From: a virus
Taxonomy: Duplodnaviria; Heunggongvirae; Uroviricota; Caudoviricetes
Reading direction: 5' to 3' (one strand)
DNA: 45,586 nucleotides
IMG/VR virus record: IMGVR_UViG_2713896785_000028
Coordinates: 1 to 45,586 of that record
Part shown: positions 1,553 to 18,777 of the stretch, piece after piece
Layout: each line of letters opens with the position of its first letter
Numbering within the stretch: position 1 is the stretch's first letter
Notes under the pieces: generated by a model
Databases searched by the model: none
The model's input: the letters and a program-made list of their open reading frames with translations, nothing else
Told to the model about the DNA's origin: nothing
Made by a program: the position numbers and the translations under genes

Positions 1553-1753
1553 TCACGAGGACTGAAGTTTCTCGCAATTAAAATTTATCAGTTTTACTTT
1601 CTGCTCTCTGGAAACGCCTGCTTCTTTTTTCCCTGAGAGCATTTTTTCGCATTCCGATTTGGTTAACTTTGTTTTTGAGTACCTTGTCCAGTTAGTAGGA
1701 GTGCCACCTTCCTTTTCAATAGTGGCGGTAATTTTATACATGAACACCTCCAT
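1553..1753 (-). CDS. Hypothetical small protein (Rac YdaC position)
   Basis: ORF in track 1553..1813; shortened to the internal ATG (MEVFMYK...) to limit overlap with the upstream gene; start uncertain. Confidence 0.4.
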   Translation of the reverse strand: MEVFMYKITATIEKEGGTPTNWTRYSKTKLTKSECEKMLSGKKEAGVSREQKVKLINFNCEKLQSS

Positions 1754-1928: not shown

Positions 1929-1991
1929 TGTTTTTTCTCTCATATAATAAAATTTTGTGATGGCGGTGAGGCTACACCGCCAAAGTCAATA

Positions 1992-3095
1992 TCAGGAGCC
2001 GATATATTCTGGTTTCATATCTGTCAGTGTCGTTTTATACGCCTCATATAATTCACCCAGATGTGGCCGGGCAGCATTCAGCGTATTTTCCAGAGCAGTA
2101 AATTTTTGTTCTGCTTCTGGATCACCTGATGAAGGAAGGTCATTTATCATCTTCTCGATACTGGCAATAGCATTGAGACGGTGATGACGCCGAACCACTT
2201 TTCCTTTAAGCTCGGCAAAGAATTCGCCGATCTGGTTTTTCTGATCCTCTATCTCTTGGCGTAATGCAGTGGTTTCCTCAGTCGTGGCCGCACTTTCGAC
2301 ACGCTGCCGGAATTCATCAATCCACGCTTCGTCAATACGCTGTTCGATGGTTTCTGTTCGCTGCTCGCTTACCTCGCTATAATTCTGTACCGGCACAGGA
2401 TTGATGATTTTTTCCTGTGGCTCTTCCAGTTCGTCCGGGGTATACACGCCCAGGATGACGTCAGGACAATAAAGGCGAGCCCAGTATTTCAACGCCAGAT
2501 AGGCGAGCTGTTGTTTCGGGTTTGAGGTCCATAAAGGAGAATTACGCGTAATCACGCTGGAAAGAAACACCGGTTCTCCCCAGGTAATCTCACTTTCACC
2601 GCGAAGAACTGCACCAACTCGAACTGAGAGACCATACTCATCTTCACTGGTCCAACATGGGATCGTTTCTTTTTTCTCATAGATTCCGCCTCCTTTGGCC
2701 GTTTTCTTAACGGTCTCCACTCGGGTGCGAGAGCATTTCTCCCAGTCTCCCTCGTACTTGTAATGGAAGCGGCCTACAATTGCACTTGAGCTAGAGATCA
2801 CAGCGTTAACCAGTTGTGCTTCATAACCCAGAACTCCGTTTACCAGGTGTGTTTTCTGAGCCACAGCGTAGGGGTTCATGCCCCATTGCATGGCTTGCAT
2901 GATGATTGCCATGCAGTCGGCAGGATTTCCGCGAAGGTGATCGGGAACTGTGACGGTGGCCTGTGACATCAACCCGGCTACTGCCTGAAGTTGTGTCAAC
3001 GCCTGAACGTTAAAAATAGTGTTACTGGCAGAAATGGTATTTGGTGTCTGCTCTGTCGTGATGATATTGGTATTTTGCATGGTCAGGTTCTCCAT
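1992..3095 (-). CDS. recT: RecT/Red-beta family single-strand annealing protein
   Basis: 367 aa; translationally coupled to the upstream exonuclease (ATG overlaps its stop); core resembles the annealase motif region (AxxIxQ..GMNP); alternative start at 3080 (MQNTN...) with a GGAGA RBS. Confidence 0.65.
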   Translation of the reverse strand: MENLTMQNTNIITTEQTPNTISASNTIFNVQALTQLQAVAGLMSQATVTVPDHLRGNPADCMAIIMQAMQWGMNPYAVAQKTHLVNGVLGYEAQLVNAVISSSSAIVGRFHYKYEGDWEKCSRTRVETVKKTAKGGGIYEKKETIPCWTSEDEYGLSVRVGAVLRGESEITWGEPVFLSSVITRNSPLWTSNPKQQLAYLALKYWARLYCPDVILGVYTPDELEEPQEKIINPVPVQNYSEVSEQRTETIEQRIDEAWIDEFRQRVESAATTEETTALRQEIEDQKNQIGEFFAELKGKVVRRHHRLNAIASIEKMINDLPSSGDPEAEQKFTALENTLNAARPHLGELYEAYKTTLTDMKPEYIGS

Positions 3096-6000
3096 TAAGC
3101 CAGATGCAGTGCTTCAAGACGACGAAGATCAAAGTCGTTTAATTCGTCGGTATAACTTTCGGTAATCGGTGCTGGCCAGTTGTTTGTCTCTAGGGCTTCG
3201 TTTATCTGGCGTAGCGTCCGGCGATATTCCTGTCGACCAAGTTCCAGGAGTTCCTGCGAGGCTTCCACGACAGCCACCCAGTGATAGCCAGCATCTTTGT
3301 TGACGAAGATCCAGAAAAATTTGTCCAGGTTTGCCACATCGCAATACATTGCGGCGCTGAGGTGATAATCATGCTCAATAATTTCACGGTGCAGGCGATC
3401 TTTAAGTCGTTCCTGCCGCACATAACCGAGGCTGACTGACTTCACGTCAGCGCAAATGCTTTCGTATGGCAGCCGGATTTCGATATCAGGACGGACCCTG
3501 ATTTCCAGCCCGGTTTCTTCATCAAACCCGAAATAGCTGATTTCAGATTTGCGATCCGGGTGGTTGAGTAGCCTTGCTGCATCAGTATTGTTTTGCATTG
3601 CAGCGTGAATATTTTTTGCCTGTTCATACATATCCGGACTGATAAACGTTTTCCCGGCGTTTTCTTCTTGCTGGCGTTTTTGCCAGTCCTCCAGTGTCAC
3701 CAGTTCCGGGCGAATTTTCCGTGCGATTTCGGTTAATTGCTCTTTTGTGCCACTGATGTTGTAAGGCAAAGATTTAGCACGTTCTTTTTTTGCCAGTTCT
3801 GGGTCTACAGTTTCAATTTGATCCAGAAGCTGCTCCCGTGCTCCACTGGTTTTCAACAGAGGAGGGAGGCTTGCGTTGTATTCTTTAATACAGGCTTTCA
3901 TTGCTGATGCTGTATGTTTTTCCCCCTCAGGAATACGCCGAAATTCCATCGGAAGCGAACCGTAAAGGATGCCTGTTTCTTCGGCCCCAGCACTTACAGA
4001 CAGTGGCTGTATAAGAGTGCTGTTGTAGCTTTCGATCCACTCTTTCATCTGCTCTGGTGTCATCAGTGCTGGCAGACTGGCATTGTGTTTTTTAATGATG
4101 GCGATCAGTTCGTTAGAAGTAGTAACCACATATTCAGGAACCGGTACCGGAATGGCATATTCATCAGCGAATTTATCCGTTTCCAGAACATAGCTGTGAA
4201 TGATCCGCCCACGCAGCAGTGCATCACTTTCCTCGTTCGGAATAGTTCCGGCAATGTGCCGCCCGTGGTAATACATCAGGCTGATACGGGCATCCTTCAG
4301 CATCGTGCTGCTTATTCCGTTGGCGGAGTGATAAACCTCGTTCGGGAGGTTTTCATAGCGGCCTGGCTCGAAATATGACGGCCACATGATTTCAGTTGCT
4401 ACAGGAGCTGACGCTTCACCAGTTTCATCACTGCAATCGTGATGCGGATGGTTGCCAGCGTTCTCCTTGTGCGGATGTTCAGCGCCTTCCATTTCCTCCG
4501 GATCATTTTCCTTAGCTTCAACCTGATTCTCTTTATCGAATGTTTCTTGGTATGTTGCGTCGCCCATTACCGCACCACAGTCAGGGCAGTTATCCCCGCC
4601 AGTCTGACCGCAGGCGGCGCAGACTTTTTCCGGTTCCTGTTGCGCATCTGGTTCATTTTGTCGCGCATTTTGGCCGTTTTGTTCCGATTTTCGGTCGTTC
4701 TGTTCCGTTTTTGGCTGATGCTGGTACACAGAATCGCGGGTCTGGATCCCCTTAACCCATTTCGGATCATTTGGGGCGCTAATCCCTTCAACAAATTCTC
4801 CGCGATAGGCAGCCAGTAATTTGTCTGCATCGACAGGATTTTTGGGCGGAATGTTTTTCCGGGCTTCATGGAGTTCTGCCCGCAGTTTCTGATATTTCGC
4901 ATCAACAGAATTTACCTGTGACTGAGCATCCAGCGGCTGCGTGTCCTGATGATGTTCAGTTGCATCCGGTTCCACTGTTTCAGCCGTTGCCTGTTCATCT
5001 GCCATTGCGCAAGATGGTTGCGGTTTTTCTTCATCATCCTGTTTTTCTTCTTCTGTTACACGCTGCGGCATCGGGGCAGAGGAGCGACCGCAGGCAATAT
5101 CCACGATTTCCGGATCAGGGTTGGCATGATCGGTTTCAGTCAGTACTTTGTTCAGATATTCAGTGACGTGCGCGGGGATGACCTCGATCCCAATTGGTGC
5201 TTCTTTCACGGACGCAACCACGATGGCGCGGGAATAATCCAGCCCGCCAGGCATGGTGATGAATTTGTCGCGGAAAACAGAAAAGGGCGGTTTATTTTCA
5301 GCGATAATTTCCTCAATGCGTTTAGCGTGTGCAGGATGAAGGTTATAGATGTCCACATCCATTGAACGGGCCAGTACGCCAGTGGCTACATCGCGCGCCA
5401 GTGACGTCAGATCGTGGACGAAACCTTCGCCGCGATCGGTGAGGTTCCCGCCGCCAGCATTAGCACCGGAAGCCGTGCGAGTGATGCGTGAAACACGATT
5501 CCCTTTTCGCCATTCTTTTGTCAGAAGACCGCGATCAATGTGTTCGGTATCCAGCCAGGCTGAAATGAAATTCTTAAATTCATAGGGCTGATGTTTTTTC
5601 GTGATAGAGAAAACTGCCTTAATTGCATCAGTCAGGCGGAGCAGGGCGGCATTATCCAGAGTTGTCGGTTCTGCCATGCCGCGTATGGCCAACAGCAGAT
5701 TCTGGACATAGCTGTTTTCCTGATCCATCTCAAGAGCAGTGATGTGTTCGCGTTGTTCACGGGTGGCATGATGCAGGTATTTCCGATCCCCGGCCGCATA
5801 CGTAAAAATGTGCAGAAGACGCTGTGTGAACCGCAAAGTGGCTACAGAGACTTCGCAATCCTGGCAATCCCCGTGGGCGTCTGCCTGCGCGTTTTCTTCC
5901 TGGCCCCCCGCCAGTTCTTTGGTTTCCTGAGCATTATCATGGTGGTGAACGTCGTCTGGCGCTGCTCCCGGTTTTAGTTCCCAGGTCATGGAGTCTTTGC

Positions 6001-6241
6001 TGAGTTGATAGCGTTCACTCCAGGTAAAATCGATCTCACCTTCAGGGGGAAGGTCATTAACGACAGGAAAATTCGTGGCAACAGCTTTAAAATAGCTGCT
6101 CAGTTTTTTACCTGACTTAACGATCAGGTAGTCCAGAGTGGCACAGGTCGATTCAAAATCGTCGCTTGCCCACAAGACGACGTCAGGTTCACCGGATGAT
6201 TTTTTCGCTTTCCGTAACAGGAAGAGTGGTTTTGTGCTCAT
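3095..6241 (-). CDS. recE: RecE-like exodeoxyribonuclease VIII
   Basis: 1048-aa ORF; N-terminus [26 protein letters not shown]... as recalled for Rac RecE; large acidic/His-rich linker containing a CxxC..CxxC motif; C-terminal nuclease region; recE-recT order. Confidence 0.8.
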
Positions 6242-9358: not shown

Positions 9359-10147
9359 ATGGCTTCAAACTGGATAAAGCTCGAGGTTATTACGCCGGAT
9401 AAGCCGGAAATATTCAGGCTTGCTGAGATTCTGAATATTGATCCAGATGCCGCATTAGGGAAGGTTATTCGCTTCTGGGCATGGGCGGATCAACAAATGA
9501 TAGACGGTAATGCAGATTGTAACGCTCGCGGCGTTACAAAAAGTGCAATAGATCGCATCACTTTTATGGCTGGTTTTGCTGATGCGTTAATTCAGGTTGG
9601 ATGGCTGGTCGAAAATGACGTTGGGCTTTCTCTACCTAACTTTGAACGCCATAACGGAAAAAGCTCTAAAAAACGGGCGGTTACAAACGAACGAGTTACA
9701 AAAATACGTGAACTGAAACGAAAAGGTAACGCTGCCGGCGTTACACAAACGGATCAAAAAGCGCTACCAGAGGAAGAGGAAGAGGAAGATCTAAATACTG
9801 ATCTCCCCCTAAATCCCCCTCGCCAAAAACGAGCGTCTAAAAAATTCGAGCCGGAGGCTATTGAGCTGCCCGATTGGTTGTCGGAAACACTCTGGCATGA
9901 GTGGGTCCGGTTCAGACAGGCATTGCGAAAACCGATTCGAACGGAGCAGGGCGCTAACGGGGCGATACGGGAACTGGAAAAATTCCGTCAGCAGGGTTTT
10001 ACACCTGAGCAGGTGATTCGACACAGCATCGCCAATGAATACCAGGGCCTGTTCGCGCCGAAAGGTGTTCGGCCTGAGACGTTACTCCGACAGGTTAACA
10101 CCGTCTCGTTACCGGATAGTGCGATCCCGCCAGGCTTCAGGGGGTAA
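9359..10147 (+). CDS. ydaU: Replication initiator, lambda O-like function (YdaU-like)
   Basis: 262 aa; located immediately before a DnaC-like loader; contains iteron-like palindromes within its own coding sequence. Confidence 0.6.
   Translation: MASNWIKLEVITPDKPEIFRLAEILNIDPDAALGKVIRFWAWADQQMIDGNADCNARGVTKSAIDRITFMAGFADALIQVGWLVENDVGLSLPNFERHNGKSSKKRAVTNERVTKIRELKRKGNAAGVTQTDQKALPEEEEEEDLNTDLPLNPPRQKRASKKFEPEAIELPDWLSETLWHEWVRFRQALRKPIRTEQGANGAIRELEKFRQQGFTPEQVIRHSIANEYQGLFAPKGVRPETLLRQVNTVSLPDSAIPPGFRG
9518..9538. repeat. Perfect 21-bp palindrome TGTAACGC-N5-GCGTTACA, copy 2, inside ydaU
   Basis: Read directly from the sequence; same half-sites as copy 1 with a different 5-bp centre. Confidence 0.7.
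9725..9745. repeat. Imperfect copy 3 of the GTAACGC-N5-GCGTTAC palindrome inside ydaU
   Basis: Read directly from the sequence; additional direct GTTACAAA half-sites occur near 9679-9701. Confidence 0.55.
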
Positions 10148-10153
10148 CTGACC

Positions 10154-10888
10154 ATGAAAAATATTGCGGCAGGCGGCATTCTTGAACGTATCCGCAGACT
10201 GGCCCCGCCACATGTAACCGCCCCATTCAGAACGGTTGCTGAGTGGCGCGAGTGGCAACTTGCTGAAGGCCAGAAACGTAGCGAGGAGATCAACCGCCTG
10301 AATCGCCAGTTGCGGGTGGAAAAAATTCTGAATCGCTCAGGCATCCAGCCGTTGCACCGTAAATGCTCGTTTGCGAATTACCAGGTGCAGAACGACGGCC
10401 AGCGATACGCGTTAAGCCAGGCGAAATCCATCGCCGATGAACTGATGACCGGGTGTACAAATTTTGCGTTCAGCGGAAAACCTGGTACCGGGAAGAATCA
10501 CTTAGCGGCAGCTATCGGGAATCGCCTGCTGAAAGACGGTCAGACAGTGATTGTGGTTACCGTGGCTGATGTTATGAGCGCCCTGCACGCCAGCTATGAC
10601 GACGGGCAGTCAGGCGAAAAATTTTTGCGGGAACTGTGCGAAGTGGATCTGCTGGTTCTTGATGAAATTGGCATTCAGCGCGAGACGAAAAACGAGCAGG
10701 TGGTACTGCACCAGATTATTGATCGACGGACAGCGTCGATGCGTAGCGTGGGAATGCTGACAAACCTGAACTATGAGGCCATGAAAACATTGCTCGGCGA
10801 GCGGATTATGGATCGCATGACCATGAACGGCGGGCGCTGGGTGAATTTTAACTGGGAGAGCTGGCGCCCGAATGTTGGCTTGCGATGA
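10154..10888 (+). CDS. ydaV: DnaC/IstB-like helicase loader ATPase (YdaV-like)
   Basis: 244 aa; Walker A GKPGTGKNHLAAAIG and Walker B DLLVLDEIG. Confidence 0.85.
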   Translation: MKNIAAGGILERIRRLAPPHVTAPFRTVAEWREWQLAEGQKRSEEINRLNRQLRVEKILNRSGIQPLHRKCSFANYQVQNDGQRYALSQAKSIADELMTGCTNFAFSGKPGTGKNHLAAAIGNRLLKDGQTVIVVTVADVMSALHASYDDGQSGEKFLRELCEVDLLVLDEIGIQRETKNEQVVLHQIIDRRTASMRSVGMLTNLNYEAMKTLLGERIMDRMTMNGGRWVNFNWESWRPNVGLR

Positions 10889-10987
10889 TTTTTATGAGGA
10901 AATAATCGACGAATGAGGGCTAATGTCTGGTCACCCGGTTGACAATTACAAATATTTTATTGACGATGAATGGAAAATGCGTGACGA

Positions 10988-11016
10988 TTACAATATATGA
11001 CTTGTCAAAGTATAAT
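10988..11016 (+). promoter_or_regulatory. Putative sigma70 promoter of the ATPase-protease cassette
   Basis: TTACAA, 17-bp spacer, perfect TATAAT, ending about 10 nt before the ATG at 11027. Confidence 0.4.
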
Positions 11017-11026
11017 GAGAGATTGC

Positions 11027-12130
11027 ATGAAGATTAACCATGAGGATTTAATTGATCTTATAAAGGCATCACTGGATGCGAATTACAGCGAAGTTCGTAG
11101 TGTTAGTAATCGCATTGTTCGCGCAATTAGCGCTCAGGATGCTGACTTAGCAAAGCAAATTAAGTCTATCATCCGTAAAAAAGGGGTACCATTACGTAGC
11201 TCTGGTTATACGGACAGTTTGCCCTTAGATCCGAAATCAAGGATGCCTTTAGTGGAAGAAGTCGAATGGCCTGCAACGCCTTTATTTCTTTCTGATGAAT
11301 CACAGCATATTTTTCATGCTTTTATTCAGAATGTTATCCATCAGAATGAACTTATAGAGAATGGAATTCCAGGTAAATTGAATTTACTTCTTTCTGGTCC
11401 GCCAGGAACAGGTAAGACATTAGTCGCTGGTCATATCGCATCCAAATTAAACAAACCGCTCTATGTTGTTCGGCTTGACTCTGTTATTTCTTCTCTGTTA
11501 GGTGATACAGCGAAGAACCTAAGACAGATTTTTGACTTCGTCCCGACAAAAGATGGTGTGTTATTTCTTGATGAAGTAGATGCGGTTGCTAAGCTTCGTG
11601 ATGACAATCAGGAAGTTGGAGAGTTAAAAAGAGTTGTTAACACATTAATCCAAGGACTGGATTCTCTTGATGATTCTGCTATTGTCATTGCTGCAACTAA
11701 TCATTCGAAGCTATTGGATCCAGCAATTTGGAGACGTTTCCCATATAAAATTAGCTTTGGTTTGCCTGGACAAGATGTCAGATGTGCTATGTGGGAACAT
11801 TTTTTATTTAGAGATGATACGGATTCATTTCTAAGTAAAATGTTATCTATCATATCAACTGGGCTAACAGGTGCTGATATTGAAAATATCAGTTTATCTG
11901 CAAGAAGGCATAGTGTTTTATCTGGCAATGGACTGGATATACCATCTGTTGTTTATGCTATATTGAATAGCGTTGCAGATAGTACAGCAATTCCTTTTGG
12001 TAAGGATATAAATTCGAGTGTTAAGAAAAATTTAGCGAAGGAATTATCTAAGTTTAAATTATCACAGGCAGATATCGGTAGACTTTTAAATGTGAGCAGG
12101 CAAACTATATCAGGTTATTTCAAGGAATAA
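11027..12130 (+). CDS. AAA+ ATPase (IetA-like candidate defence ATPase)
   Basis: 367 aa from the ATG downstream of the predicted promoter (track ORF starts at 10997); Walker A LLLSGPPGTGKT, Walker B VLFLDEVD, sensor-1 IAATNH, Arg-finger region DPAIWRRF; HTH-like C-terminus (LSQADIGRLLNVSRQTISGY); visibly AT-rich. Confidence 0.8.
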   Translation: MKINHEDLIDLIKASLDANYSEVRSVSNRIVRAISAQDADLAKQIKSIIRKKGVPLRSSGYTDSLPLDPKSRMPLVEEVEWPATPLFLSDESQHIFHAFIQNVIHQNELIENGIPGKLNLLLSGPPGTGKTLVAGHIASKLNKPLYVVRLDSVISSLLGDTAKNLRQIFDFVPTKDGVLFLDEVDAVAKLRDDNQEVGELKRVVNTLIQGLDSLDDSAIVIAATNHSKLLDPAIWRRFPYKISFGLPGQDVRCAMWEHFLFRDDTDSFLSKMLSIISTGLTGADIENISLSARRHSVLSGNGLDIPSVVYAILNSVADSTAIPFGKDINSSVKKNLAKELSKFKLSQADIGRLLNVSRQTISGYFKE

Positions 12131-12132
12131 TT

Positions 12133-14400
12133 ATGGTCAGTGAAAATAAAGCTAAAATTTTAAACCCAATAATTACTTTATTGAAACCACCAACGCCAGA
12201 GGCGATTCCTGTTGGAGGGAAAAGTCGTAAAAATATTGTTGGTTCACGGTTGAAACAACAGCGTGAAGTTTTATCCTCAGAGATAGATTCCATATTAAGA
12301 ACAGAAGGTGAAATAGTTAAACATCGTGGTAAGTATCATATAGTAACAAGTATGTTTGAGGACTCATATGCACCATCGTTTATACCAGATTCATTATTCT
12401 GTCCCAGTGTTGAATGTAAGATAGTTGCACCAGCATACAATGGATATTTAATTGAGGTCAATAGCAATGCTTTATTGAAGTTGAAAAATAAAATTAATAA
12501 TGCAAAAGCTATTACTGATCTTGTGGATATTTCAAGGGTTAGAAGTGTTAGTCTTTTTGATTCATCTTGTACATTGCGAAATAGTAGCCTTGATTCGCTC
12601 TGGAATACAGTTAAGGCTTTGAATACATTTCAATTTAATATGTGGCTTATGCCTTTTTTTGATGAGCTTTCTAGAGAGTCTGTAGTTTCAACTTTTTTAA
12701 ATTTTTTAAATGATGGTATCATCGCTTTTGGTTATTCAGATTTTGACATAAAAACTATAAATCAAGATGCTGCTGTTGGCGGGGATAATATAGTCATAGT
12801 TCCACCGTTACTTATTGAAGCGATAAAAAAGTATCGTAAATCAGGTCAAGCATCCGTTACCGTCACTGTAGAGACTAAAGATAGTTTAAACAGGATACTG
12901 AATAGCAGTGCTGTGTATCGTATAGATCCTGTATCACCGCTAAACGTAACAGATACTCCTCCTGGTAATGGGGCTGAACCTGTTCCACCAATATTGGGGG
13001 ATAAGAAAATGCCAACTGTAGTTGTAATTGATGGTGGGTGTAATGCGAAATCATATTCAAATTTAAATATATATAAACTAAATCCGCTAATTCCAGATCA
13101 TGATGCAGATTGTAAACATGGTAATAAAGTTGTATCGTTGTTATGTCACGGTTATGCTTGGAATAATAATTTAAACTTACCTAAATTGCAATGTAGCTAT
13201 ATAAGTGCACAGGCTATTGCGAAAAGGGGAGTGTTGAAACAACCAACTCCGGATCAATTTTTAAATTATTTAAGAATGGTTGCTGACAAAACGTCATCTA
13301 TCGCCAAGGTCTGGAATCTTTCGTTTAATGAAGACGCTCCTCATTATAACTGTAATGAGATAAGTTATCTGGGACATAAAATCAGTTTGTTGGCTCGAGA
13401 ATTTGGTATTCTGCCTGTAATATCTATCGGTAATGTTTCAAAGAACGAAAAACAAAAAAATCTTTGTCCGCCCGCAGATTGTGAGTCAGGAATTACAGTA
13501 AGTGGGAGAACGGCCAATCATGAAGGAATGCCTTCAGATGGCTGTCCTTTAAGTCGGAAAGGCCCTGCTCCTGCAGGAATGAAAAAACCTGAGTTATCAT
13601 GGTTTTCTCGAGTTAGGGTGATAGGTGGAACAGTAGATATCGGAACAAGTTTTAGTGCTCCATTAGTTTCATCTATTGCTGCTCATACCTTTTCGAATAT
13701 TAAAAATGCCACTCCTGATTTGGTTAGGGCATTATTGATTAACAGGAGTGAGTTGCTTTCTCATGATGATGCATTAGGATGGGGGACTCCTTGGGATGGC
13801 GATTTACTGCCATGGTATTGTAAAGATGGCAGTGTCACATTAACGTGGATATCTAAGTTAAAGGCTGGGGCTGCTTATTATTGGAACGATCTTCCATTAC
13901 CTCCAGAGATGTTAGTTAATGGTAAATTAGTTGGTGAGATATCTCTGACAGCTATACTAAAACCTAAGGTTTCTGAGTTCGGAAGTGAGAACTATTTTTC
14001 GACAAGGCTCCAATGTTCGTTACAGGCAATAAAAGAAATTAACGGAACGCTAAAAACAGAAAGCCTTCTTGGGTCAATGAAAGAATCTTCTGTTGATGAG
14101 CGTAAAGCTAGAAATGAACTTTCTAAATGGAGCCCTATTCGCCATCATGCAGAGTCGTTTAAGAGAAAAGATATAACAGGGTGTAAAATTCGGCTTTATG
14201 CTAGGATATATGCTAGAGATTTGTATCAGTATGGGTTAAATAACCAACGGGAGCTTGAAGAGCAAGAGGTTTCCTTTGTTTTAACTTTTAAAAGTGTATC
14301 AGGATCGTCCTCAATATATACATCAATGGTTCAGCAACTTGGTGTTTATGTTGAAAGTGCTGTTATAGATAATCACATTAACATAGATGTTAATAAGTGA
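12133..14400 (+). CDS. Subtilisin-like S8 serine peptidase (IetS-like)
   Basis: 755 aa, 2 nt after the ATPase stop; catalytic-triad motifs in S8 order: Asp (TVVVIDGG), His (HGNKVVS), Ser (GTSFSAPLVSS); about 280-aa N-terminal and 240-aa C-terminal regions of unknown function; AT-rich. Confidence 0.8.
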   Translation: MVSENKAKILNPIITLLKPPTPEAIPVGGKSRKNIVGSRLKQQREVLSSEIDSILRTEGEIVKHRGKYHIVTSMFEDSYAPSFIPDSLFCPSVECKIVAPAYNGYLIEVNSNALLKLKNKINNAKAITDLVDISRVRSVSLFDSSCTLRNSSLDSLWNTVKALNTFQFNMWLMPFFDELSRESVVSTFLNFLNDGIIAFGYSDFDIKTINQDAAVGGDNIVIVPPLLIEAIKKYRKSGQASVTVTVETKDSLNRILNSSAVYRIDPVSPLNVTDTPPGNGAEPVPPILGDKKMPTVVVIDGGCNAKSYSNLNIYKLNPLIPDHDADCKHGNKVVSLLCHGYAWNNNLNLPKLQCSYISAQAIAKRGVLKQPTPDQFLNYLRMVADKTSSIAKVWNLSFNEDAPHYNCNEISYLGHKISLLAREFGILPVISIGNVSKNEKQKNLCPPADCESGITVSGRTANHEGMPSDGCPLSRKGPAPAGMKKPELSWFSRVRVIGGTVDIGTSFSAPLVSSIAAHTFSNIKNATPDLVRALLINRSELLSHDDALGWGTPWDGDLLPWYCKDGSVTLTWISKLKAGAAYYWNDLPLPPEMLVNGKLVGEISLTAILKPKVSEFGSENYFSTRLQCSLQAIKEINGTLKTESLLGSMKESSVDERKARNELSKWSPIRHHAESFKRKDITGCKIRLYARIYARDLYQYGLNNQRELEEQEVSFVLTFKSVSGSSSIYTSMVQQLGVYVESAVIDNHINIDVNK

Positions 14401-14440
14401 TGTACAGAAACTGATTTATTATTATGTTAATTAATGTATT

Positions 14441-14470
14441 ACCCGCTTCGGCGGGTTTTTGTTTTTATTT
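14441..14470 (+). terminator. Rho-independent terminator after the S8 peptidase gene
   Basis: ACCCGC-TTCG-GCGGGT hairpin followed by TTTTTGTTTTTATTTT. Confidence 0.6.
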
Positions 14471-14591
14471 TCAATACGTTTGAAGTTATGGACGATGCCG
14501 GAATAGAATCAAAAATACTTAAGTAGCGCGCAGGGAGAAGAGGGATGGACCCCGAACAGGGGGGTGCTATTTATCTGGAAGGATTCTGTTG

Positions 14592-17560: not shown

Positions 17561-17636
17561 GGCCCTTTAGCTCAGTGGTGAGAGCGAGCGACTCATAATC
17601 GCCTGGTCGCTGGTTCAAATCCAGCAAGGGCCACCA
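17561..17636 (+). tRNA. tRNA with anticodon CAU (Ile2/lysidine type, ileX/ileZ-like)
   Basis: Cloverleaf read by hand: acceptor GGCCCTT/AAGGGCC, D-arm TAGCTCAGTGGTGAGAGC, anticodon loop CTCATAA, T-loop GGTTCAAATCC, encoded CCA; close to the recalled E. coli ileX sequence. Confidence 0.8.
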
Positions 17637-17638
17637 TT

Positions 17639-17715
17639 CCGCCACTAGCTCATCGGGATAGAGCATCAACCTTCTAAGTTGATTGTGCGAGGTTCGAGTC
17701 CTCGGTGGCGGACCA
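17639..17715 (+). tRNA. tRNA-Arg (anticodon UCU)
   Basis: Cloverleaf read by hand: acceptor CCGCCAC/GTGGCGG, anticodon stem TCAAC/GTTGA, loop CTTCTAA, T-arm CGAGGTTCGAGTCCTCG, discriminator A plus CCA. Confidence 0.8.
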
Positions 17716-18777
17716 TTCCATGCAAGTTTAGCTGGCAGCGCTATTAGCTCGGCGTAATAGGGCTATTCGTTAGGCTCTGTTAGTTCACCATATTTCGTCA
17801 AAACTTTTCTTTTCAACGCTACAGTTAACGTTAATCATTACAAAAACTACTGCTGATGTAAGTCTTGTGAACTGTTATTTCTGAAGAGCTTACTGTGATT
17901 TATTGCGACAACGGAGTTAGCGTACTCCCAATTTGTTCATTTTTATGTTGTTTTTTTTCACAATTTCCTGTGAGAAATCAGAAGTCTGGATGAAATAACG
18001 TAAATTGTATGCGTATGATACATATTTATACATATATTTAAATATGAAAACTAATTAGTTTTTGATGTCATATAAATTATCGGTAATATTACTCCCGACC
18101 CGAAAGGCAGCAAGTTTCTGTTCACAGGGGTGTTACCCGCTGTCTTGCGGGTCATTGCAGGCATCCGTTTAATCATAATGAAGGGCTGTTATCAGTATCA
18201 GTGTCATTATTGTGGTTACGGAGGCCTGCTCTATGTGCAGGTATCGTATAGTGGTTATTACATCAGCCTTAGGTTGGTAATGCCGGTTCGATTCCTGTTC
18301 TCCGCAACTTCATTGTTTTTTTGGACAAGTTTTTACAGCACTGGCGAATTTTCGTGAAGAACAGACCTGGCAGGTGGATTTGTTGTTCTTCATTCTGTAG
18401 ACCTGACCGCCTACAGTTTCAGTGCTTTTTTTGTAGTCATCCCTGCATGTTGCAGGGATGAGGTGATACCAGAATGCGTCGTTGTCTGTTTCCGGGCTTA
18501 CGATTTGCCAGTTTGCACAGCAGGCTGACGGCGCATTCTTATAACATCTATACAAGTAAACTCTGTTTCATCATTACATTGCGTTAGCCCGCCTTATGTG
18601 TGGGCATTTTTTTACCTATGCATATGGCTCGCTGCGGCGGGCCTTTTTCATATCCGCGCCACGCCTGGCGCACATCACATCAGATAGCGCCACACAAAAG
18701 GTATCTGCGGGTGCCTTTGACGGGGTGTTTTTTTACGGGCCGACAGAGGCCCTTTTTTATTTACAGGAGAAAAACGT

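Follow-up and report, generated by a model that had tools for sequence, protein, structure and literature searches.

A putative toxin–antitoxin cassette of the IetAS family carried as accessory cargo by a Rac-type lambdoid prophage

Gene content of the locus

The DNA analysed here is a 45,586-nt stretch of a Caudoviricetes genome (positions 1 to 45,586 of IMG/VR virus record IMGVR_UViG_2713896785_000028; hereafter, the window), which represents a Rac-type lambdoid prophage and carries on its plus strand adjacent genes for an AAA+ ATPase and a subtilisin-like S8 peptidase, named here ietA and ietS (Table 1). The cassette formed by these genes belongs to the IetAS family and is cargo of the prophage, both of which we state with high confidence, and we consider it probable that this horizontally acquired accessory element functions as a toxin–antitoxin (TA)/abortive-infection module.

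Only ietA and ietS lie between ydaV, which ends at 10888, and a rem-like open reading frame (ORF) at 14589. Their open frames (10997..12130 and 12133..14400) have the same orientation, the stop codon of ietA (TAA, 12128-12130) is followed after 2 nt by the ATG of ietS, and an AAGGA Shine–Dalgarno motif for ietS is located within the 3′ end of ietA. Because of this narrow gap and the position of the motif, translational coupling of the two genes, as proposed in an earlier reading of the sequence alone, is plausible. The start of ietA is most likely the ATG at 11027, which yields a protein of 367 aa: M(K/N)I(N/D)HEDL at the equivalent position opens every one of the 368-aa homologues from Klebsiella, Salmonella and Pseudomonas, and the PGAP start call in the genome with the twin copy of the cassette is equivalent to 11027. 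The same homologue starts and PGAP call led us to reject the ATG at 10997 as the start. In RefSeq, the two genes of the twin copy bear the generic labels 'AAA family ATPase' and 'S8 family serine peptidase'.

Table 1. Features of the IetAS cassette, its surroundings and related loci (window coordinates unless a locus is named; HTH, helix-turn-helix)
Feature	Position	Strand	Description
IetAS cargo cassette	10879..14440	+	3,562 bp; delimited by blastn against the cassette-free RM11911 Rac
Four-hexamer TTKACA array	10939..11007	+	exact 21-nt phasing, candidate operator for the IetA HTH; 10939 TTGACA, 10960 TTGACG, 10981 GTGACG, 11002 TTGTCA
Sigma-70-like promoter, best match	10987..11016	+	ATTACA-18 nt-TATAAT, 10/12; tentative
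ietA	11027..12130	+	367 aa, AAA+ ATPase (classical clade), putative antitoxin/regulator
AAA+ core	11369..11926	+	residues ~115-300, Pfam AAA 3.9e-29
AAA+ core elements			Walker A K130, pore-loop-1 S-L-L-G (157-159), Walker B D182/E183, sensor-1 N225, Arg fingers R236/R237, GxxGADI lid
C-terminal tri-helical HTH of IetA	12014..12124	+	residues 330-366; recognition helix SRQTISGYFKE
ietS	12133..14400	+	755 aa, intracellular subtilisin-like S8 peptidase, putative toxin/effector
IetS N-terminal region	12133..12972	+	~residues 1-280, alpha/beta domains, function not assigned
S8 catalytic domain	13000..13812	+	D300 (13030-13032), H329 (13117-13119), oxyanion N434 (13432-13434), S506 (13648-13650)
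IetS C-terminal all-beta domain	13825..14352	+	~residues 565-740
Intrinsic terminator	14441..14466	+	ACCCGC-TTCG-GCGGGT then TTTTTGTTTTT, at the right junction
TTKACA arrays elsewhere in the clade	L013 ~5809-5877; L017 ~5789-5836; L099 ~4891-4960; L101 ~4892-4941; L103 ~4920-4967		L103 is Bradyrhizobium
RalA sRNA	1557-1735	+	Rfam RF02694, 218 bits; antitoxin of the RalR type I pair of Rac
recT-like and recE-like genes	1992-6241	-	367 aa and 1,048 aa
tRNA-Met(CAT) and tRNA-Arg(TCT)	17561-17715 and 18237-18306	+	3′ of the Q-like gene

Family membership and features of the two proteins

Model searches assign both proteins to the IetAS family. IetA matches the PADLOC model PDLC02196 at 5.2e-100 (333.5 bits; residues 16-376 against model positions 5-369 of 374), IetS matches PDLC02197 at 2e-65 (219.5 bits) together with five more IetS models at E ≤ 1e-10, and both are matched colinearly and over their full length by the NCBIfam models IteA and IteS, with residues 42-736 of IetS aligned to positions 33-731 of 747. 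The Pfam matches, too, lie above the gathering score (AAA for IetA, Table 1; Peptidase_S8 for IetS, 5.5e-14). The sequence-only reading had described an IetAS-like pair with full AAA+ motifs in the first gene and an S8 catalytic triad in the second, and on each of these points our analysis agrees with it.

Translation of ietA gives GPPGTGKT, LFLDEVD, ATNH and WRRF, the motifs that hold the Walker A, Walker B, sensor-1 and Arg-finger residues, respectively. In an alignment of 62 diverse homologues, the residues of the AAA+ core, including the SLLG of pore-loop-1, are invariant or nearly so. The similarity of the core in sequence and fold, the Arg fingers of the second region of homology and the GxxGADI lid place IetA in the classical AAA clade of FtsH/Cdc48/Vps4-like unfoldases. 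At its C-terminus, the AlphaFold2 model shows the three helices of an HTH at 330-340, 347-354 and 358-366 with a pLDDT of ~92; Pfam HTH_3 matches this tail weakly (E 0.004), and in the same alignment R358, Q359 and Y364 are nearly invariant.

IetS carries VVVIDGG (D300), KHGNKV (H329), SIGN (N434) and GTSFSAP (S506), and these four residues are invariant among the 62 homologues. The N-terminal ~280 aa have no match in Pfam and are clade-specific at the sequence level, as BLASTP produces no alignment to canonical IteS there, with conserved positions at N11, P12, P20, P22, G28, G29 and K30. The AlphaFold models of both proteins are confident (for IetS, pLDDT 86.6 and pTM 0.89), and a sequence search of the PDB with IetS gave no match.

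The HTH tail of the ATPase and the extra domains of the protease had previously been taken as possible marks of a divergent variant, an idea that did not survive comparison: these parts are kept in >100 full-length homologue clusters and are colinear with NCBIfam IteA/IteS, and canonical IteA possesses a tail with which the HTH segment of IetA can be aligned. As judged from these alignments, the divergence is one of sequence, not of architecture. The cassette represents a clade of full-length relatives that is separate from the canonical and pTiC58 types. Among the best 120 of 276 clusters (90% identity), nearly all are full-length matches at ≥43% identity, and when 1.84 billion proteins were searched exhaustively, only ~30 full-length IetS representatives (50% identity) emerged, with other subtypes aligning from about residue 290 onwards.

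Members of this clade range over Enterobacterales, Pseudomonas, Halomonas and alpha-proteobacteria, including Rhizobium/Agrobacterium plasmids other than pTiC58, where full-length homologues of the window IetS occur at 42-43% identity. Outside Escherichia, identity to the most similar homologue drops to 67% for IetS and 81% for IetA. Relatives reside in a prophage of K. pneumoniae, a chromosomal island of K. michiganensis, an AlpA/YfjJ island of Salmonella and a Pseudomonas island that also encodes a SLFN-helicase/MazG pair and GT4-conflict, and in Bradyrhizobium an opposite-strand Multi_ubiq/Prok-E2/ThiF-JAB/BubE set abuts ietAS upstream (L103 2249-4887). This ubiquitin-like conjugation neighbour is a setting of the defence-island type, and the neighbourhoods of the clade relatives are, as a whole, typical for defence systems.

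Composition, boundaries and distribution

The GC content of the cassette is 0.365, as compared with 0.515 in the left flank, 0.466 in the right flank and 0.480 in the rest of the window, in which it is the lowest-GC stretch of 3.56 kb; GC at third codon positions is 0.25-0.27 in its genes versus 0.45-0.62 in the neighbouring ones. The lower GC content that had been noted by eye relative to both flanks is thus borne out by both measures. When the window is aligned by blastn with the Rac prophage of E. coli RM11911 (L003), the match runs at 99.2% up to position 10878 and resumes at 99.8% from 14441. In place of the cassette, RM11911 has 3,147 bp that encode DUF1627, DUF977, hypothetical proteins, DUF551 and hokD, so the comparison with a Rac-like prophage devoid of the insert reveals a precise replacement and not a conserved core.

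The slot follows the replication genes (ydaU/ydaV) with their DnaC-like gene and precedes the nin/Q region, and its cargo varies among sibling prophages. In the Rac-type prophage of E. coli CS6L, it holds genes for an ATP-binding protein of 376 aa, a protein with a STAS-like domain and a further, hypothetical protein (L004 3354-5311), a three-gene cargo that may be another defence candidate, and in the temperate phage vB_EcoS-683R6 it is filled by a different IetAS subtype. The view of this slot as a recurrent cargo site therefore stands.

The cassette itself is rare. Among 5,426 complete genomes of E. coli, a single one contains it, that of the bovine isolate OkiPb01675 from Okinawa, where it is located in Rac at ttcA; a query made of the ydaV flank matches 1,820 complete E. 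coli genomes, and in 1,819 of these the cassette is missing. It also occurs at the same place in draft genomes and in two contigs of IMG/VR, IetA has 100% identity to a cluster whose name derives from E. albertii, and no copy was found in phage records. The cassette and its OkiPb01675 copy (NZ_AP042478.1) share 99.7-99.9% identity, while the adjacent ydaV region (window 10100-10878) is 95.4% identical to OkiPb01675 and 98.6% to the cassette-free RM11911. Because a cassette identical at up to 99.9% is accompanied by a ydaV flank of only 95.4%, this pattern points to its movement between Rac variants by recombination. Foreign composition, matches to the IetAS models and the near-complete absence from genomes with the ydaV flank together support the earlier proposal of a horizontally acquired module in a variable slot.

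These observations also bear on the possibility that IetA and IetS together act as an ATP-dependent two-component protease of the ClpXP/FtsH kind, in which the unfoldase supplies the peptidase, and serve prophage development instead of immunity, for example by degrading a repressor or a host factor. Such a role would suit an ATPase of the unfoldase clade with an invariant pore-loop-like SLLG, encoded in the early-right operon 3′ of the replication genes with no intervening terminator. A developmental factor, however, would hardly be dispensable and as rare as this one, with one carrier in ~1,820 ydaV-flank genomes, nor would foreign composition and the presence of the same clade outside phages be expected of it. 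Chambered proteases are not known among subtilases. Moreover, published genetics show the ATPase antagonising the protease instead of enabling it, and we regard a developmental role as highly improbable.

A phased repeat array upstream of ietA

Upstream of ietA, we identified four TTKACA-like hexamers in exact 21-nt phasing, the only such array on either strand of the 45.6-kb window. All ten loci of this IetAS branch that we examined have 3-4 TTKACA sites with 21-22-nt phasing at 40-110 nt upstream of ietA. These loci comprise the window and two from Klebsiella, then four from IMG/VR, and then those of Salmonella, Pseudomonas and Bradyrhizobium, the last three of which were fetched after the hypothesis had been formed and thus represent an independent test of the array. 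In nine of the ten loci, none of 300 dinucleotide shuffles reached the array score, and across ~100 kb of related loci, array matches occur almost solely upstream of ietA.

Within the HTH of IetA, the recognition helix (SRQT-S-Y-K) is as conserved as the array. This pairing of a conserved HTH with a conserved phased array upstream of its own gene suggests, as the simplest reading, that IetA binds its promoter region and that ietAS is autoregulated, and a spacing of two helical turns between sites would fit an oligomer bound to one face of the DNA. With its conserved HTH and an array that is present in 10/10 loci and unique in the window, to which binding is putative, the operon is a candidate for autoregulation of the type II TA kind. 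In the literature, we found no paper that links ietAS with autoregulation.

Neither canonical iteA nor the pTiC58-type systems proved to have a TTKACA array upstream. In phage 683R6, weaker 21-nt-phased hexamers that do not fit TTKACA (GTTACA/GTATCA/GTTACG) precede ietA (L006 ~1979-2026), and in E. coli CT282, which carries the canonical subtype, weaker hexamers with the same phasing (CTACAA/ATACAA) are seen at L005 ~5370-5400. These two loci hint that the canonical subtype may have its own version of the phased arrangement. Separately, CT282 contains a stray TTKACA array in 21-nt phase with 1-3 mismatches (L005 9991-10060), situated ~1.2 kb 3′ of canonical iteS, with the gene of a HigA-family antitoxin on one side and a hypothetical gene on the other.

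Promoter and terminator

The cassette had been described as bracketed by a near-consensus promoter and a strong terminator, and both statements hold in part. A sigma-70-like site that fits the consensus at 10 of 12 positions does exist, flanked or overlapped by repeats 3 and 4 of the array, yet sites of this kind are as numerous in the region as expected from shuffling, which leaves the promoter plausible but unproven. The terminator is real, yet it belongs to the shared backbone junction. From 14441 on, the sequence is 90-100% shared with ~3,000 E. coli genomes, in which it lies 3′ of hokD/gef, and in other carriers of the cassette, homology to the window stops at 14460. Since its start coincides with the resumption of homology and it is common to ~3,000 genomes, we read this terminator from the alignments as a module-boundary element of the backbone junction that is not specific to the cassette; as a part of the cassette it was ruled out by its occurrence in these ~3,000 cassette-free genomes.

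Given that Rac prophages are often defective and that the promoter prediction is weak, one could suppose that the cassette has no current function, either as an inactive remnant or because it stays silent within a cryptic prophage. We see very little probability in this, as both ORFs are intact with all catalytic residues kept, the upstream array is intact and the window codes for full morphogenesis and lysis modules. Furthermore, the near-identity of the cassette to the OkiPb01675 copy despite the more diverged ydaV flank, and the full identity of IetA to the E. albertii-named cluster, would not be expected of a decaying element.

Comparison with known systems

The canonical E. coli IteA/IteS type (NF042959/NF042956; CT282, L005:5448-8835) is the subtype behind the NCBIfam equivalog models and the best-matching PADLOC models. 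It has the same gene order in a two-gene operon, proteins of similar size (382/752 aa versus 367/755 aa in the window), the AAA motifs, SLLG pore loop and C-terminal HTH-like tail in IteA, and the D/H/N/S residues and C-terminal beta domain in IetS. In sequence, however, the CT282 and window proteins share only 36% identity in IetA and 27% in IetS, the latter over residues 278-736 only, and canonical members score 973-990 bits with PDLC02197 as compared with 219 for the window IetS.

The IetAS of phage vB_EcoS-683R6 (ON470595; L006:2095-5488) occupies the same lambdoid slot, between a DnaC-like gene and DUF1367/YbcO/Q, and has the same two-gene architecture. Its protease is nevertheless of the canonical subtype (990 bits, PDLC02197). 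Since the system belongs to that subtype, and since its proteins are merely 27% and 43% identical to those of the window, the sequence comparison indicates that it was acquired independently.

In the pTiC58 IetAS (L009:17873-21373) and the SgiAT system of SGI1, the AAA+ gene is likewise followed by the S8 gene. The pTiC58 IetA, however, has 328 aa, is 40% identical over 161 residues of the AAA core only, lacks the HTH tail and has an aromatic pore loop (KFMG) where the window IetA has SLLG, and the 836-aa pTiC58 IetS bears no significant BLASTP similarity to its window counterpart. With a match limited to the IetA core and none for IetS, membership of the window system in the pTiC58/SgiAT clade was ruled out. 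The ietHAS system (Liu-DS4) has the IetA/IetS core in common with the window, with its SNF2 helicase being peculiar to ietHAS. No helicase ORF lies beside the cassette, whose neighbours are ydaV and the rem-like ORF, and the three-gene variant was thus ruled out by the lack of an SNF2-type helicase gene between these two.

Two further kinds of system were compared. In type III CBASS, the client of Trip13 (Trip13–HORMA, PDB 6p8v) is a HORMA–cyclase complex and not a protease, and the Trip13 system has neither an HTH nor TA genetics and does not belong to the IetAS family. Subtilases of the Tk-SP, KP-43 and fervidolysin type, which are 14-18% identical to IetS, are secreted degradative enzymes with propeptides, whereas IetS has no recognisable signal peptide, a clade-specific N-terminus of ~280 aa and an ATPase partner.

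Other features of the prophage

The RalA sRNA gene is the antitoxin locus of the RalR type I pair of Rac, and therefore the prophage has at least one other toxin module. The recT-like and recE-like genes are unlike the versions in the OkiPb01675 Rac, and the recombination module is mosaic, because it has no nucleotide match to OkiPb01675 over 1983-4399 and 90.7% identity in the matching part. Apart from the two tRNA genes in Table 1, a third, weak tRNA-like match scores 31.8 bits with Rfam, just over the gathering score, and is not called by ARAGORN.

Discussion

Published work on related systems provides the basis for interpreting the cassette. In SgiAT of SGI1, the protease acts as toxin and the ATPase as its antitoxin (PMC5006074), and the same roles are ascribed to pTiC58 IetAS in the accounts given by PMC13069673 and PMC5006074. 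Defence by ietHAS needs the protease, and its ietA mutants could not be cloned (PMC13069673). A homologue of B. cereus m1293 acts by abortive infection, triggered by the product of SPbeta yosG (bioRxiv 10.1101/2022.08.27.505566), and IetAS has already been noted in E. coli prophages (bioRxiv 10.1101/2022.08.21.504612). In 2026, the biochemical mechanism of IetAS was still called unknown (PMC13069673). By analogy with these systems, we moderately favour a TA/abortive-infection logic for the cassette described here.

The same literature brings up a different main function for the cassette, namely addiction or stabilisation of the prophage through post-segregational killing or the exclusion of competitors, with an anti-phage effect that would be secondary or absent. 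The founding members, pTiC58 IetAS and SgiAT, were described as stabilisers of a plasmid and an island, the element hosting the cassette has other toxin modules (RalR/RalA in the window; kilR and ydaS/T in the twin Rac), and ECOR52 ietAS alone protected to a limited extent. On the other hand, SgiAT expressed from its own promoter caused no post-segregational killing (PMC5006074), other IetAS systems protect heterologous hosts against phage, and close relatives of the cassette also sit next to other defence systems in islands of the chromosome. The two roles, moreover, are not mutually exclusive and would draw on common toxin/antitoxin biochemistry. Stabilisation as the main function appears to us unlikely, and a TA/abortive-infection module carried as accessory cargo remains the reading we prefer.

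If so, the mechanism might be as follows. IetA, a ring-forming pore-loop AAA+ remodeller of the classical clade, would spend ATP to keep the cytoplasmic IetS inactive, much as Trip13 in CBASS holds its effector off, and its C-terminal HTH, bound to the array of four TTKACA repeats in 21-nt phase that overlaps the promoter, would repress the operon. A phage product could then titrate or block IetA, and the freed IetS might cleave essential host and/or phage proteins, arresting growth before phage release. We propose the remodelling and autoregulation steps tentatively, with somewhat less than even confidence.

Several observations weigh against this interpretation. The systems that have been tested (Gao-type E. 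coli, B. cereus m1293, ECOR52, ietHAS, pTiC58 and SGI1) are only distant relatives of the cassette; identity of its IetS to the canonical type is ≤27%, there is no BLASTP similarity to the IetS of pTiC58, and both proteins miss the NCBIfam equivalog cut-offs (IteA, 297.5 versus 510 bits; IteS, 177.3 versus 900). In the one case of ECOR52, ietAS alone conferred limited protection (bioRxiv 10.1101/2022.08.21.504612). As for regulation, we infer binding of IetA to the repeats solely from their co-conservation, and the recognition helix and the hexamer, both being too conserved, showed no informative covariation. The array could instead consist of stacked promoter elements, as TTGACA is also the −35 consensus, and promoter-like sites in the region show no enrichment (13 against a shuffle expectation of 13.5), which makes for a weak promoter call.

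IetAS is a validated anti-phage family. As a further instance the cassette adds little, since PADLOC-type tools would flag it. Although it is detectable by existing defence models, its branch is generically annotated in RefSeq, falls below the NCBIfam equivalog cut-offs and lacks a dedicated PADLOC model; it is, in other words, under-modelled. What the present analysis adds is a delimited subtype and the observation of the HTH together with the phased repeats. Near-isogenic cassette-free Rac relatives in E. coli offer a natural comparison, and the conserved HTH and the 21-nt-phased array suggest how the ATPase 'antitoxin' is wired into the control of its operon, a possible route into the mechanism.

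At its most specific, and at a strength that we would call doubtful, our proposal is that IetA is a DNA-tethered AAA+ ring on the TTKACA sites that both represses ietAS and restrains IetS, in a clade that is a distinct subtype with a sensor domain at the N-terminus of IetS. If this were true, a phage trigger that removes or stalls IetA would derepress the operon and unleash the protease simultaneously. Transcriptional and post-translational control would thereby be coupled in one switch, for which there is no described precedent among IetAS systems.

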